Part shown: positions 6,459-11,292 of the stretch, in pieces
Layout: the number at the start of each line of letters is the position of its first letter
Numbering within the stretch: position 1 is the first letter of the stretch
Sequence record: DRR378314_483
Strand: one strand, 5' to 3'
Length of the DNA stretch: 33,954 bases
Notes under the pieces: model-generated
The model's database searches: none
The model's input: the letters and a program-made list of their open reading frames with translations, nothing else
What the model was told of the DNA's origin: nothing
Translations under genes and position numbers: made by a program

Positions 6459-6483
6459 AGGCAGCGCAAGCTGCCTTTTTTTT
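6459..6483 (+). terminator. Intrinsic terminator of pheST-ihfA, probably bidirectional
   Basis: AGGCAGC-GCAA-GCTGCCT stem followed by a T run and preceded by an A run; between convergent genes. Confidence 0.85.
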
Positions 6484-6895
6484 AATATTTAACTTTCATT
6501 TGTTTTACCGATAGTGCGATGATTTGTTCTAGCACGTTTAAATCGATGTTGTTTAAATTACTAATATAAAGGCAACTCTTCCCTGTTTTATGCTTACCTA
6601 GTTTATTTAGTAGCGGTGCTATTTCATCACTCTCAAACCCGGGCATAATATAGATGGATAGTTTTGTCTTGCGCGGTGAAAAGCCAGTCAATGGCCATTC
6701 TCCACTTTGACCTGAATCGTATTTATATTGATAACACCCAAAGCCAATTATATCTTTTCCCCATACAAGCGCAGGTTCTTGCGTTATTTTTTCAAAAAGG
6801 GCAATTAACCTGTGTGTATCCTCTAAGCGCTTAGGATCTATATGTGCTAAACATTCTTCTAAAGTGATTTGATTTACTTGTGTTTTTAACGCCAT
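6482..6895 (-). CDS. DUF1801 (YdhG-like) domain protein
   Basis: WGxxIIGFG, GFSPRK and LGKHKTGKSCLY motifs; start moved to ATG at 6895 (MALKTQ). Confidence 0.8.
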   Translation of the reverse strand: MALKTQVNQITLEECLAHIDPKRLEDTHRLIALFEKITQEPALVWGKDIIGFGCYQYKYDSGQSGEWPLTGFSPRKTKLSIYIMPGFESDEIAPLLNKLGKHKTGKSCLYISNLNNIDLNVLEQIIALSVKQMKVKY

Positions 6896-7024
6896 TTTTA
6901 TGCCCCAGACTACCAATATCTATTTAGCATAGAGACGGTACTGAGAATATTCAATGCATTATTGGTCACGATCGGTATAATGCGCGCAACTGGCCACTTT
7001 GGCCTTATTTAAAAGAGAGTTTAT

Positions 7025-8425
7025 ATGAGTTTTGATGGGTTAGGTTTATCACAGTCTTTAGTTAATGCAGTTTTAGAAAAGGGCTATGAAACGCCAACAC
7101 CAATTCAGGCTCAGGCCATTCCTGCGATTATTGAAGGTCGCGATGTAATGGCTGCTGCGCAAACAGGTACAGGTAAAACAGCAGGTTTTACTTTACCGCT
7201 TATTGAGTCATTGTCGAAAGGACAAAAGGCTAAATCTAATCATGTACGAGCACTTATTTTGGCACCAACCCGTGAACTTGCATTACAAGTAAGTGAAAAC
7301 GTTGAAGAGTATGCCAAGCATTCAGGTGTTAGCTCGTTTGTGGTTTATGGTGGTGTTAAAATTAACCCGCAGATGCAGCGTCTGCGTAAAGGTGTGGACA
7401 TTTTAGTTGCCACACCTGGGCGTTTAATTGACTTACACAACCAAAATGCAGTTAAGTTCGACAATGTTGAAGTGCTGGTTTTAGATGAAGCTGACCGCAT
7501 GTTAGATATGGGCTTTATTCATGACATTAAACGCTTAATAGCAAAAATGCCGGCAAAGCGCCAAAACTTAATGTTTTCAGCCACTTTTTCTGATGACATT
7601 CGTGCGTTGGCGAAAGGATTAATTAACGATCCTGTAGAAATATCTGTAGCTGCAAAAAATACGACTGCAAAAAGTGTGACGCAAAGTGTTTACGCAGTAG
7701 ATAAAGCGCGTAAAACAGCGTTGCTGAGTCATTTAATTCGTAGTAACAATTGGCAGCAAGTATTGGTCTTTAGTCGTACTAAACATGGTGCTAATCGCTT
7801 AGTTAAGCAACTTGAGCGTGATGATATTGTTGGTGCAGCAATCCATGGTAACAAATCTCAAGGTGCTCGTGTGAAAGCACTTGAAGGTTTTAAAAGCGGT
7901 GAAGTCCGTGTACTTGTTGCAACAGATATTGTTGCACGAGGTTTAGATATTGTTGAGCTTCCACACGTTGTGAATTACGACTTACCTAATGTATATGAAG
8001 ATTATGTTCACCGTATTGGTCGCACAGGTCGTGCAGGTGCATTTGGTCACGCTATTTCATTTGTAACAACGGAAGATGCGGCAGATTTATATGGTATTGA
8101 ACGTTTTATTGGAGAGCTAATCCCACGTGCTCAAGTGGAAGGCTTTGAACCAAGTAACCCTGTTCCTGAGCGTGCTCTCGATGCACGCCCGCTGCCAGCT
8201 AAAAAAGCAAAGAAAAAGCAGCCATTTAATAAACCTAAGTCAGACAGCAGTAAACCGAACAGCAAAAAGTCTAACAATGGTGGCAATGGTACTGGACCAC
8301 GCCGTGGTGGCTCTAAAAAGCCTGCAGCTAAAGGTGAGGGAGAGCAACAAAATCCATGGGCAAAACGTCAGTCTGTTGGTGGTAACTCACAGCGCCGTCG
8401 TAGGCCAAGTAATGGTGGCTCTTAG
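7025..8425 (+). CDS. rhlE: DEAD-box RNA helicase, RhlE-like
   Basis: Q motif, [36 protein letters not shown]; basic low-complexity tail. Confidence 0.85.
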
Positions 8426-8446: not shown

Positions 8447-8470
8447 AACGCGCCTTAATGGCGCGTTTTT
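8447..8470. terminator. Terminator between the convergent helicase and DUF3307 genes
   Basis: AACGCGCC-TTAAT-GGCGCGTT hairpin followed by TTT. Confidence 0.8.
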
Positions 8471-9215
8471 ATTGTGTAGTTAATAAGTTAATAGTTAAAC
8501 CGATAAATAGTGTCACTGTCACACTTAACAAAGTACCTAGCATTACATATTCAGTGAGTTGTTTTTCTTCACTGGCACGTAAATCACCAAAACGAAAAAT
8601 AGATTTTGCCGCTAGTAAAAAGCCAACACCGGTATACTCACCTAATAAAATAAATGTCAGCATTAAAACTCGCTCTAATATACCTATACTATGCCCAGCA
8701 GCCGGAATGCTGCCTGATGTAGAAAAGCCATTGGTGATACGTTCAAGTGCCATGCGAATAAATACTGAACTTGGGTTAAGCACTAATAAATAGCCTGTGA
8801 GTATAATTAAATTATTAAGGGTAATAAGCTGCTTTACTAGTTGGTTGTAAAAGTCGTGATTATCAGCAAGCCACACCGCGACTATAACAATCACAATCAA
8901 GTGGGCACATTGATCGAGTACAAAAGGGATCACCCCTTTATTTGAGTACGATTTGGCAATATCAATAAAATAATGGGTAATTGCAATCACCACGGTCGCA
9001 ACTGCTATGTTCAACCCGTCCCCCCAACCATAGTGGTATTCCCATAAAGTAATAATGAGGGCGCTGACTAGGCAGTGCATTAAAACATGTAAGTAAAGCT
9101 TACTCGCTCTAAAGTGCCGTGTGTTTCTATCATGTACCCAACTCATAGGTTGCAAGTAAAAATCGGCAAGTAAATGAGCAATAACAAGACCTGTTAATAA
9201 TAAATAAAAGCTCAT
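8469..9215 (-). CDS. DUF3307-like multi-pass membrane protein
   Basis: HLLADFYLQP, HVLMH, THYFID and DQCAH motifs plus C-terminal AGxxIGILER and AAKSIFRF; ATGA overlap with the upstream gene. Confidence 0.75.
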   Translation of the reverse strand: MSFYLLLTGLVIAHLLADFYLQPMSWVHDRNTRHFRASKLYLHVLMHCLVSALIITLWEYHYGWGDGLNIAVATVVIAITHYFIDIAKSYSNKGVIPFVLDQCAHLIVIVIVAVWLADNHDFYNQLVKQLITLNNLIILTGYLLVLNPSSVFIRMALERITNGFSTSGSIPAAGHSIGILERVLMLTFILLGEYTGVGFLLAAKSIFRFGDLRASEEKQLTEYVMLGTLLSVTVTLFIGLTINLLTTQ

Positions 9216-9838
9216 TTTGTCACTCCTTTGAGCTGTTGCTCGATAGCATGTTTGCTGTAATTCAAAAAGCGCTCTATAAGTTGGTAATGTGCTAAATTAA
9301 GTAACTTTGTCACATTTTCACGACTGGTTTTAAGCTCCTTGGCAAGCTCGCTATGGCTGTTATTTTGCGAGGTTAAATAGTAGAACAACGCATTAGCTTG
9401 CTTTTGGCTAATTTTATCGAGCAGCACATCAATTAAATCTATGTTAAGTGCGAAGCTTGTTTCGATCGGGTTATGCTCGATTTGCAATATTAACAGTTGG
9501 CTCATTGTATCTAACCCTTGGCCTGAGAGTGTATACGCTGAGCCTGTGGCTGTTTTTATATCAGCGCGAGGGTTGTCAAGCCCTCCAACAGCAAGGCTTT
9601 GGCGTAATGAATAATTGGCTGATTTTAGCTGTAAGTAGAGCAATACGGCTGCACTGCACACATCAGTTGGATCAGGTAATTGTATTTGTAGGGCATCACC
9701 GCGATAAATGCTAAATTGGCCATTAAATTTGTTTGTAATAAAACGTAAGCTTTGATCTAGCTGGTAAAGCATATCATCGTATTGATGTTGCGGAATTTTT
9801 TGTGACTTGATCAAATCGCCAGTAATGACTGCAATCAT
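9212..9838 (-). CDS. SatD-like protein (cyclase/palm-like N-domain plus C-terminal HTH)
   Basis: AVITGDLIKS and IYRGDALQ motifs, TGSAYxxSG, C-terminal HTH (HSELAKELKTSRENVTKLL); ATG at 9838 preceded by AGGTGAG SD. Confidence 0.75.
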   Translation of the reverse strand: MIAVITGDLIKSQKIPQHQYDDMLYQLDQSLRFITNKFNGQFSIYRGDALQIQLPDPTDVCSAAVLLYLQLKSANYSLRQSLAVGGLDNPRADIKTATGSAYTLSGQGLDTMSQLLILQIEHNPIETSFALNIDLIDVLLDKISQKQANALFYYLTSQNNSHSELAKELKTSRENVTKLLNLAHYQLIERFLNYSKHAIEQQLKGVTK

Positions 9839-9856
9839 TATTCTCACCTAGCTAAT

Positions 9857-9930
9857 GTAACCTATATCAGTTACTTTTTGTTATGTAACCAAATTCGGTT
9901 ACTTGTTAATAAGTAACCAATCTAGGTTAC
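9857..9930. promoter_or_regulatory. Three palindromic operators GTAAC-N8-GTTAC at 28-bp period
   Basis: Copies at 9857-9874, 9885-9902 and 9913-9930 with conserved arms and variable centres. Confidence 0.8.
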
Positions 9931-9947
9931 TTTTAGCTTTTTTTCAA
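9919..9947 (-). promoter_or_regulatory. Predicted sigma70 promoter of the SatD-DUF3307 operon
   Basis: Minus strand TTGAAA (9947-9942)-N17-TAGATT (9924-9919); the -10 lies inside the third palindrome. Confidence 0.55.
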
Positions 9948-9991: not shown

Positions 9992-10510
9992 ATGTCGCAA
10001 TCATCAGAGTCGTTAGTTAAATCGCAGATAGCTTCAAAACCCAGAGTGGGAATATTTGTCGACGTGCAAAATATATATTACACCTGCCGACAAAGTTATG
10101 GTAAAAATTTTGATTACAATGCTTTTTGGGCACACGTGAGTGAACGTTACGACATTGAGTGCGCCTTTGCTTACGCTATTTATCGAGGTGATGATAAGCA
10201 ATCACAATTTCAAAATATCTTGCGGGCAATTGGTTTTGAGGTAAAGCTTAAACCGTTTATTCAGCGTAAAGATGGCAGTGCTAAAGGTGATTGGGACGTA
10301 GGCATCACTATCGATATGCTTGAGCATGGAAAAAAACTTGATCGTGTTATTTTACTCTCTGGTGATGGTGATTTTGCGCTATTACTGGGTCATTTGGAGC
10401 ATAAATATAATGTTCCCGCTGATGTATATGGCGCAGATAAATTAACTGCTGATGCGTTAAAGCAAAGTGCTGAGCATTTTTACTGTATCGATCACTCATT
10501 ATTACTATAA
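9992..10510 (+). CDS. NYN domain (LabA/DUF88, PIN-like) putative nuclease
   Basis: FVDVQN, KGDWDVGITID and LSGDGDF acidic catalytic motifs. Confidence 0.88.
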   Translation: MSQSSESLVKSQIASKPRVGIFVDVQNIYYTCRQSYGKNFDYNAFWAHVSERYDIECAFAYAIYRGDDKQSQFQNILRAIGFEVKLKPFIQRKDGSAKGDWDVGITIDMLEHGKKLDRVILLSGDGDFALLLGHLEHKYNVPADVYGADKLTADALKQSAEHFYCIDHSLLL

Positions 10511-10649: not shown

Positions 10650-11078
10650 ATGAGTTACACACAAAAAACACGGTTATTAGAAGCAGTGATTACGCTAGTT
10701 TTGCTGTTTAATTATTTACAAGGCGTGCTATCGATGACCCCTGAGGCACAAATGAATCCAACACTTGCCAGTGGCTTACTAATTGAGTTGGCGATTCAGA
10801 CGGTCGTGATGCTGGTAATTATGCATAGTATTTTAGCTGCGTTTAACACAAAATACGCTAACCAGCCTAGAGATGAACGTGAGCAAGCAATTGCCTTGAA
10901 AGCTAAAAGTGTGAGCTTATTTATTTTACAGCTGGGTGTTGTTAATGCTGTTTTTGCCCTACTAGTTGACTCAGTTTACCCAATACCAATGAGCCCAGTA
11001 CATCAGTTAGTTATTGCTGCTTTATTGGGTGAGGTGATTGGCGCTGCAGTTGAAGCATGGTTACTGCACAGAGGTTAA
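10650..11078 (+). CDS. Hypothetical 4-TM membrane protein with a DERE loop (DUF2178-like)
   Basis: Four hydrophobic segments, RDEREQAI loop, AGGAG SD; directly upstream of a small XRE gene. Confidence 0.65.
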   Translation: MSYTQKTRLLEAVITLVLLFNYLQGVLSMTPEAQMNPTLASGLLIELAIQTVVMLVIMHSILAAFNTKYANQPRDEREQAIALKAKSVSLFILQLGVVNAVFALLVDSVYPIPMSPVHQLVIAALLGEVIGAAVEAWLLHRG

Positions 11079-11079
11079 A

Positions 11080-11292
11080 ATGGCAAAATTAGCAATCACA
11101 AATACAATTAGAACCCAACGATTTCACCATAATGAGATGACTCAGCAGCAGTTGGCTGACCTCGTAGGCGTAACGCGCCAGACTATTGCGGCAATAGAAG
11201 CGGCTAGGTATTCTCCATCATTGGAAGTGGCATTTAAAATTGCAGCGGTATTTGGTCAACCACTGGAAAATATATTTCAATACGAGGCATAA
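11080..11292 (+). CDS. XRE/Cro-CI family HTH transcriptional regulator
   Basis: MTQQQLADLVGVTRQTIAAIE and YSPSLEVAFKIA; start at ATG 11080 after GAGG. Confidence 0.9.
   Translation: MAKLAITNTIRTQRFHHNEMTQQQLADLVGVTRQTIAAIEAARYSPSLEVAFKIAAVFGQPLENIFQYEA

Follow-up and report, generated by a model that had tools for sequence, protein, structure and literature searches.

A candidate autoregulated cassette of a SatD-like cyclase-fold protein and a DUF3307 membrane protein

The stretch of DNA analysed here, 33,954 nucleotides of sequence record DRR378314_483 (hereafter the window), carries on its minus strand two overlapping genes for a SatD-like protein of 208 amino acids (aa) and a membrane protein of the DUF3307 family. 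We read the pair, at about even confidence, as an autoregulated two-gene cassette in which a one-component regulator with a cyclase fold controls the DUF3307 gene. This reading is built on what is directly observed: the fold of the regulator, its conserved residues, the coupling of the two genes, the operator arrays upstream of them, and the co-variation of these arrays with the helix-turn-helix (HTH) of the regulator. The cassette combines known kinds of elements, i.e. one-component regulators, the cyclase-fold superfamily and the SatD/SatE pair, and is not demonstrably a new system.

We propose the following scheme, in which repression, what the ligand is, the metal site and the role of DUF3307 are inferred. 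The 208-aa protein would be a one-component transcription factor, and the cassette the proteobacterial counterpart of streptococcal satD-satE. The C-terminal HTH, as a dimer, would bind three 18-bp palindromes, 28 bp apart, which span the promoter and the leader of the operon that encodes it; this binding would repress both the SatD-like gene itself and the translationally coupled DUF3307 gene. The N-terminal domain, a diverged cyclase/palm fold, would bind a metal-nucleotide ligand either as a sensor or as a slow non-canonical enzyme, and occupancy by this ligand would set DNA binding. The regulated product, DUF3307, would be a polytopic inner-membrane protein with a residue cluster at the ends of transmembrane helices 1 to 4 (TM1-TM4), on the cytoplasmic side.

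Layout of the gene pair and the SatD-like superfamily

The SatD-like gene, which encodes the cyclase-fold domain followed by the HTH, occupies positions 9212-9838 (minus strand, ATG at 9838); a longer alternative would start with GTG at 9847, and the ATG is preferred because relatives start at MIAV. The gene for the 248-aa DUF3307 membrane protein, with 11 predicted helices in two halves (residues 1-121 and 130-248), lies at 8469-9215 on the same strand. The TGA of the former overlaps the ATG of the latter in an ATGA at 9212-9215 (minus strand; TCAT on the plus strand), which suggests translational coupling of the two genes. A preliminary description of this DNA, made from the sequence alone, had already given the coordinates of the pair and the ATGA overlap, and both are borne out, with the addition that the two genes are on the minus strand, which it did not state; the motifs that it pointed out in the SatD-like protein are likewise present, as VITGDLIKS (residues 4-12), IYRGDALQ (44-51) and TGSAYTLSG (98-106). 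The GC content of the cassette (0.39) is the same as that of its flanks, and recent transfer of the copy in the window was ruled out on this ground.

The name SatD-like, also used in that description, holds for the superfamily, while the window protein itself falls outside the curated family. It has no row for Pfam SatD (PF16264; gathering score 29 bits) at E<=0.1 or E<=1, the only Pfam row at either threshold being HTH_Crp_2 (E 0.067), and a genome search with PF16264 misses the SatD-like gene in G001, the whole genome nearest to the window (4.5 Mb), as well as in four other carriers. Of the 50 relatives found by a k-mer based search, almost all come from Pseudoalteromonas and are annotated as 'hypothetical'. 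A profile of 19 of these (A1), searched against 1.84 billion cluster representatives, matched 2726 representatives (50% identity) at E<=1e-3, of which 1737 reached E<=1e-10; almost all of the matched proteins are 200-230 aa long and aligned end to end. When the window protein was aligned with 41 proteins chosen among 150 listed A1 matches (alignment A2, 42 in total), PF16264 was found to match 19 of the 42 (best E 1e-15). The window protein thus shows full-length homology to PF16264 members and the same two domains, and the label rests on transitive homology, as it is the relatives that match PF16264. The proteobacterial branch of SatD-like proteins sits outside the curated PF16264 model.

The N-terminal domain adopts a cyclase/palm-like fold

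Residues 1-125 (9464-9838, minus strand) form a class III cyclase/palm-like domain with a beta-alpha-beta-beta-alpha-beta core, as judged from an AlphaFold2 model, Foldseek and VIA searches, profiles and conservation. The model of the SatD-like protein, computed with A1, has a mean predicted local distance difference test (pLDDT) score of 91.3 and a predicted template modelling (pTM) score of 0.90; residues 2-120 run as strand, helix, two strands, helix, strand, helix and strand, and residues 127-204 as five helices. Foldseek returned 52 matches in the PDB at E<=1e-3, and among the matches listed all are class III adenylyl or guanylyl cyclases, with Rv1900c as the best (E 2e-5) and with Ma1120, CyaC and bPAC also present (TM-score on the target 0.57-0.62). 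The VIA matches, which cover model residues 1 to about 120-139, reached Z scores of 12.2-14.2 overall, led by GTP cyclohydrolase III (14.2) and including Ma1120 (13.4), Rv1625c (13.2), the GGDEF domain of DosC (12.8), Y-family polymerase palms (12.4) and Cmr2 (12.3); the cyclases scored 12.2-13.4 with root-mean-square deviations (rmsd) of 2.5-3.4 over 120-135 residues. Since these scores lie within about two Z units, the fold is assigned to the nucleotide-cyclase/palm superfamily. The cyclase/palm fold put forward in the preliminary description is thus upheld by the model and its Foldseek matches.

By sequence profiles, class III cyclases appear to be the nearest relatives of the domain. A profile of 17 N-terminal domains (A4) matches Ma1120 (E 3.8e-5); in this match D8 aligns with the Asp of FTDIEEST, and RGD with QGD. 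When A4 was compared by hhalign with 14 genuine Guanylate_cyc domains from related genomes (A6), the probability was 89% (E 2.3e-6). The GGDEF signature GG[DE]EF is absent, the hairpin reading Y-R-G-D-A-L-Q in the window and RGDxFQ in the family consensus, and the window protein has neither a Pfam GGDEF row nor a PF00211 match. Class III cyclases such as Ma1120 and Rv1900c share with the SatD-like domain the fold, the beta1 Asp, the hairpin G-D ligands and an alignable beta4. The SatD-like domain differs from them in having a variable position in place of the invariant substrate Lys, in lacking a PF00211 match and in its shorter length (~125 aa versus ~180 aa), and their Asn-x3-Arg helix could not be aligned with it.

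Conservation was assessed over 146 sequences, comprising the window protein and 145 representatives (of 151, P0048-P0198, six were dropped for a length outside 185-240 aa). D8, G47, D48, Q51 and G106 are invariant in 146/146, S12 is kept in 145/146, R46 in 143/146 and G99 and S105 in 137/146 each, and the most conserved positions of the family all lie in the N-terminal domain. In the Ma1120 and A6 alignments, D8 takes the place of the metal Asp of beta1 (FxDIxGFT) and D48 that of the Asp in the hairpin G-D, the two aligning to the invariant D15 and D59 of the 14 cyclase domains, so that the Asp pair proposed in the preliminary description is both conserved and matched to the metal ligands of cyclases. 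In the SatD-like family, the metal half of the cyclase centre appears to be under the strongest possible constraint, and the half that defines cyclase chemistry seems to be absent or unrecognisable. The substrate Lys, the invariant K55 of A6 four residues before the G-D Asp, is not kept; its equivalent, position 44, is Ile in the window and I, R or F in 52, 30 and 23 of the 146 sequences, respectively. Alignments of the A4 profile to cyclases stop at about residue 91-93, before the Asn-x3-Arg (alpha4) helix. By the register of the motif S-G-R/Q-G-L-D, which is not a structure-based alignment, the Arg-equivalent position 107 is Arg in 75/146 and Gln in the window, and the Asn-equivalent position 103 is variable. 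The family-specific invariant residues (S12, R46, Q51 and S105-G106) would surround the Asp pair in space.

An HTH domain and tandem operator-like palindromes upstream

Residues 127-204 (9227-9460, minus strand) constitute a C-terminal helical DNA-binding domain with TSRENVTKLLN as the likely recognition helix. The HTH reported in the preliminary description is a confident helical domain in the AlphaFold2 model but weak by sequence: the best PDB sequence match is a winged HTH (wHTH) of the ZitR/AdcR type at E 0.0027, and sigma-70 region 4 is matched in 11 of the 42 relatives in A2.

The 153-bp gap between the SatD-like gene and a divergent NYN gene contains three 28-nt direct repeats, each with an 18-bp operator-like palindrome. 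The first, GTAACC-N6-AGTTAC (9857-9874), lies 19 bp upstream of the SatD-like ATG, and the second and third, both GTAACC-N6-GGTTAC, lie at 9885-9902 and 9913-9930; the third overlaps the -10 of the sole minus-strand promoter-like site, TTGAAA-17-TAGATT (9919-9947, minus strand), a weak match to the consensus. The pattern GTAAC-N8-GTTAC occurs three times in the window, each time at the array, compared with 0.04 expected, and 0 of 100 shuffles reach three. Nine such sites are present in G001 versus eight of a control pattern, and the only cluster is formed by the three upstream of the SatD-like gene, which speaks for a regulator dedicated to this locus and not for a regulon. A wider SatD regulon was ruled out, the six other sites in G001 being single and at the control rate.

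A survey of the 220 bases 5' of the satD-like gene at 17 other loci, with palindromes read by eye (a script listing perfect 6-nt arms gave fewer), revealed that the G001 locus (L002) repeats the window array and that at least two tandem 6-N6-6 palindromes are present at 12 of the 16 remaining loci. The half-sites vary by genus (TTAGCC, GCAAAC, GCAAnT/GTTGC, GTAAC, AATCAC, ATAGCC and GTAATT), and like recognition helices pair with like half-sites across loci. The window protein and that of L011 are only 38% identical overall, yet they have in common the helix TSR(E/V)NVTKLLN and the half-site GTAACC. We regard this co-variation as supportive and not independent, because most concordant pairs are close kin. 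The arrays and their co-variation with the HTH are new relative to the preliminary description, whose suggestion that the SatD-like protein is its own transcription factor looks right from the operator arrays upstream.

Coupling and distribution of the two genes

DUF3307 lies directly downstream on the same strand in 26/26 distinct SatD-like genes outside the window, so the tight coupling of the two genes that was anticipated in the preliminary description holds. In a family sample (61 genomes, 59 genera), the SatD-like gene was found full-length (E<=6.6e-47) in 15 genomes, 15/15 with DUF3307 downstream, and DUF3307 in 16 genomes and 15/59 genera; 29 further genomes with partial matches to the HTH part (E 1.3e-5 to 9.8e-4), in frames mostly of ~300 aa, were left out of the count. 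In a phylum sample (301 genomes), 10 genomes carry the SatD-like gene, four of these 10 being common to both samples, 10/10 with DUF3307 downstream, and 21 carry DUF3307. Besides, DUF3307 is annotated downstream in 5/5 plasmid records examined (H3 and H5-H8, of 8 matching), and the plasmid carriers include Segatella copri (Bacteroidota) and a 10.3-kb plasmid of Pseudomonas fragi (pPFL). One copy in the family sample, in G008 (C1:2704794-2705780), has its DUF3307 match split by a TAA stop and its SatD-like match shortened to model positions 4-182, and this cassette may be decaying.

No SatD-like gene without DUF3307 was found in the samples examined. The reverse does occur: the long form of DUF3307 stands without a SatD-like gene in G043, the one such case of the family sample, and in G177 and G334, and five partnerless DUF3307 carriers yielded no full-length SatD-like gene when searched again at E<=0.01. 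Among the 11 DUF3307-only genomes of the phylum sample, the open frames measure 127-187 aa in nine and 263 and 281 aa in the other two; the short proteins without a SatD-like gene are exemplified by G192, G115 and G229. The Pfam domain therefore seems to exist also as a stand-alone four-helix protein, of which the SatD-coupled form would be a two-domain version. A regulator never seen without the membrane gene, when membrane genes do occur without it, is what one expects of a local regulator dedicated to this target.

The same layout invites comparison with type II toxin-antitoxin (TA) operons, in which the first gene likewise encodes a DNA-binding protein, the genes overlap, palindromic operators cover the promoter and the module is mobile. 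DUF3307 could accordingly be pictured as a membrane toxin and the SatD-like protein as its repressor/antitoxin, the two forming an addiction module that stabilises plasmids and genomic islands. The regulator-first order, the gene overlap and the operator array fit such a module, as does pPFL, which carries the pair among replication, recombination and TA genes, and PMC11323703 describes satD of Streptococcus pyogenes as accessory yet 'essential'. Nevertheless, we consider an addiction module quite unlikely. The second gene here encodes a large polytopic membrane protein that is strongly conserved (18 invariant positions in 16 sequences), unlike small membrane toxins, and the regulator has a ligand/enzyme domain whose invariant metal site a plain antitoxin would not need. 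Moreover, the pair sits on the chromosome and is found widely in the genus, and the orphan pattern, with long-form DUF3307 lacking a SatD-like gene and never the opposite, is the reverse of that usually seen for orphan antitoxins.

The DUF3307 membrane partner

The membrane protein matches Pfam DUF3307 (PF11750) over residues 6-128 at E 7.5e-31 (107.2 bits versus a cut-off of 23), and NCBIfam gives only a sub-threshold row for Cg1360 (19.1 bits versus a cut-off of 40). Sixteen DUF3307 proteins from cassette loci, 27-46% identical to the window protein, have 18 invariant positions, namely H14, D18, Q22, H43, H81, D85, K88, D101, Q102 and H105 in the first half and G178, E181, R182, G198, K204, R208, G227 and S231 in the second. 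The model (pLDDT 86.5) consists almost entirely of transmembrane helices, 11 in two halves, and the His/Asp/Gln/Lys residues sit where helices 1 and 4 end and where helices 3 and 5 begin. R30, R33, R36, K39, K88 and K93 lie in loops on the same side as this cluster, and by the positive-inside rule the invariant His/Asp cluster probably faces the cytoplasm. Its position points to a membrane metalloenzyme or a metal-ion pathway over a simple pore. Two observations on sequence variants may be added here. The long-form protein of G043 that stands without a SatD-like gene (L012:1108-1839) has a diverged C-terminal motif, GKLYYRLQD versus AAKSIFRFGD elsewhere. Two plasmid-borne proteins, of 356 aa (L019:5647-6717, NZ_KX353852.1) and 340 aa (L020:6643-7665, NZ_CP135148.1), are ~100 aa longer than the chromosomal ones and may contain an extra domain.

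Structure searches with the DUF3307 model gave no relative outside the family. Foldseek against the PDB returned nothing at E<=1e-3, its top rows being TRP/Kv channels at E ~0.5 with rmsd of 12-23 A; in the wide VIA search, the best Z (9.8, to a designed helical repeat) lies within the background of helical proteins, as do the values of 7-8.5 for the C-terminal half against SecDF, RND and Patched-like segments. A search of the ESM Atlas found only DUF3307 clusters. No recognisable nucleotide-sensing domain is present in the protein. A prediction of the complex between the SatD-like protein and its DUF3307 partner scored 0.00 twice, in runs made without family alignments, and is uninformative on binding.

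The pair might instead serve metal homeostasis, with the two-Asp site of the regulator sensing Mg2+ or Mn2+ (nucleotide optional) and DUF3307 acting as a divalent-cation transporter. Cation-diffusion facilitators use HxxxD motifs in transmembrane helices and come to mind as an analogy for the invariant H14-x3-D18, H81-x3-D85 and D101-Q102-x2-H105 in the transmembrane helices of DUF3307. Of the cyclase centre, just the part that binds metal is retained in the regulator, and the best PDB match of its HTH is to the zinc regulators ZitR/AdcR (E 0.0027), which maybe reflects merely the common wHTH. Still, no transporter family or fold was matched, as set out above for Foldseek (none at E<=1e-3) and VIA (best Z 9.8, a designed repeat), and the neighbouring genes show no metal theme, so that we hold a metal homeostasis pair to be very unlikely.

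Genomic context and the analogy to defence systems

The pair had been placed in a block of non-housekeeping genes, and its synthase-plus-membrane-protein layout had been likened to Pycsar, CBASS and Panoptes. The block is not a conserved neighbourhood, and in this window the pair lies outside any defence island, its context being a DEAD-box helicase gene, the NYN gene and an XRE pair beside a nag cluster. Flanking open reading frames are unrelated among genera, except for two pairs of close relatives, which identifies the cassette itself as the unit. Elsewhere it adjoins TA and recombinase genes on pPFL, genes for an AAA ATPase, a helicase and a DUF4365 protein together with an IS3 element in Enterobacter, insertion sequence (IS)/transposase genes in Segatella and Vibrio, and ordinary metabolic genes in Salinivibrio. 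The plasmid neighbours are TA or defence-like in 2/5 cases and not in 3/5, a tally that is not a statistical survey.

A nucleotide second-messenger pair for defence or abortive infection would comprise a triggered synthase and DUF3307 as membrane effector, with the HTH keeping both under tight repression. CBASS and Pycsar also consist of two genes, for a nucleotidyltransferase-like and a membrane protein, and are patchy and partly plasmid-borne. The cyclase/palm fold with both metal Asp invariant and the strict pairing with a membrane protein (26/26) speak for this possibility, as do the patchy spread without conserved flanks (DUF3307 in 15/59 genera, SatD-like in 10/301 genomes) and the occurrence on plasmids, two of five beside TA genes (pPFL) or beside the AAA ATPase, helicase and DUF4365 genes, and three of five adjoined by IS/transposase genes. 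In spite of this, we think a defence role unlikely. PADLOC-DB 2.0 (2023, which predates Panoptes) contains no family that matches either protein at E<=1. The cyclase Lys falls at a variable position, the Asn/Arg region is unalignable, and the window has Gln where half of the family has Arg. Transmembrane effectors of CBASS and Pycsar are small and poorly conserved, whereas DUF3307 is highly conserved, lacks a soluble sensor domain and has an invariant polar cluster that looks catalytic or ion-binding; the CD-NTase fold family of those systems is a different one, and their synthases carry no HTH. In addition, no phage-sensing domain is present, the neighbours in the window and in Salinivibrio are ordinary metabolic genes, the GC content equals that of the flanks, and the DUF3307 protein has no match in 50,697 phage records. 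From the interpretation given in the preliminary description, the fold, the Asp pair, the coupling and the own-regulator role are therefore retained, and the analogy to Pycsar, CBASS and Panoptes finds no support in view of the missing PADLOC match, the cyclase Lys that is not kept and a DUF3307 protein in which no nucleotide-sensing domain is recognised.

Known relatives

The streptococcal SatD/SatE pair, whose SatE we take to be a DUF3307 protein, resembles the window pair in its architecture, in a length of ~210 aa, and in having the DUF3307 partner directly downstream. It differs in lying in an ffh operon, while the window pair is free-standing and has an operator array to itself, and in that the PF16264 model excludes the window protein. 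In S. mutans, SatCDE, Ffh and YlxM belong to one cluster, SMU.1057-1063, according to PMC12077213 and PMC13492114, and PMC12005413 lists satD of S. suis as a 'DNA-binding protein' targeted by a small RNA. For S. pyogenes, PMC11323703 presents satD as accessory (178/249 genomes), essential in every transposon sequencing (Tn-seq) strain carrying the gene, the single accessory gene scored essential across Tn-seq studies of this species, and otherwise unstudied. This essentiality would fit harmful derepression on loss of the regulator. No printed statement of a cyclase fold for SatD was found, the search leaving aside subscription journals and the clan notes of Pfam/InterPro, and DUF3307 is mentioned, in the literature searched, in a single paper, on a jumbo phage.

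A cyclase domain and an HTH are also joined in one polypeptide in Rv0386 of Mycobacterium tuberculosis. Cyclase-plus-HTH proteins of this type are large; an ATPase domain separates the two parts, and the cyclase is canonical and active. By this comparison, the window protein would be a minimal two-domain version with a non-canonical centre.

Weighing the autoregulated cassette

Several points weigh against an autoregulated cassette. No experiment known to us connects a SatD-like protein with DNA binding or with a ligand. The essentiality of satD in S. pyogenes may have other causes, e.g. polarity, and the DUF3307 identity of its neighbour there is assumed; Kremer and colleagues are said to have obtained, in 2001, satD and satE mutants of S. 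mutans without an acid-tolerance phenotype. Promoter-like sites in the region occur at chance level (five found, 5.6 expected). Within the 220 bases upstream, L016-L018 have no palindrome and L014 is doubtful, and the co-variation of helix and half-site is confounded by relatedness. The spatial clustering of the invariant residues rests on homology mapping and not on model coordinates. Finally, palm domains that have become sensors or pseudo-enzymes usually lose the metal Asp, and the two invariant Asp of the SatD-like family argue for true catalysis over pure sensing.

In a bolder view of the same cassette, the SatD-like protein would be an active non-canonical palm enzyme, producing or converting a nucleotide signal while also repressing its own operon, and DUF3307 would be a new kind of membrane effector or enzyme that answers or consumes the product, the whole forming a mobile signalling, abortive-infection or addiction cassette. 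We rate this, too, as an unlikely outcome. The autoregulated cassette with a cyclase-fold one-component regulator, which leaves room for a sensor as well as for a slow enzyme, is the reading that we prefer.

Neighbouring features

A GC-rich hairpin flanked by runs of T (8447-8467), probably a bidirectional terminator used by both genes, separates the DUF3307 gene from the convergent DEAD-box helicase gene (7025-8425). On the other side of the cassette, the divergent NYN/LabA-like gene (9992-10510, plus strand) matches Pfam NYN at E 2.5e-38 and the PADLOC family 'LabA-like NYN nuclease' at E 4.9e-15. Being kept beside the pair only in the near-identical genome, it probably does not belong to the cassette, and the operators could still affect its expression via the common intergenic region. 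The SatD-like profile matches the NYN protein weakly (E 2.7e-4) at model positions 38-76, the part with the RGD hairpin; as the NYN protein has an IYRGD stretch, this was taken as a probable chance motif match.

Farther along, a small membrane protein of 142 aa (10650-11078, plus strand; no family above threshold) is encoded by a gene that overlaps by 41 bases the gene for an 84-aa XRE-type HTH protein (11038-11292, plus strand; HTH_3 E 6.3e-14), forming a compact pair of membrane protein and regulator upstream of the nag cluster. A DUF1801 protein gene (6482-6916, minus strand; E 4.7e-10), unrelated to the cassette, lies upstream of the helicase gene.

Implications

SatD and DUF3307 are large families without an assigned function, the former with 2726 SatD-like cluster representatives, and the pair now has a testable anatomy consisting of a two-Asp cyclase fold joined to an HTH, co-varying operator arrays and an obligatory membrane partner in which a His/Asp cluster is invariant. 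Should the cassette with an active enzyme prove true, it would extend at the least to Pseudomonadota, Bacteroidota and, going by published work, streptococci, and would represent nucleotide signalling unrelated to the CD-NTase, Pycsar and Cas10 systems. An active palm domain would open a new branch of bacterial nucleotide signalling, and a pure sensor would clearly exemplify a one-component regulator that has taken over a cyclase fold as its ligand module.

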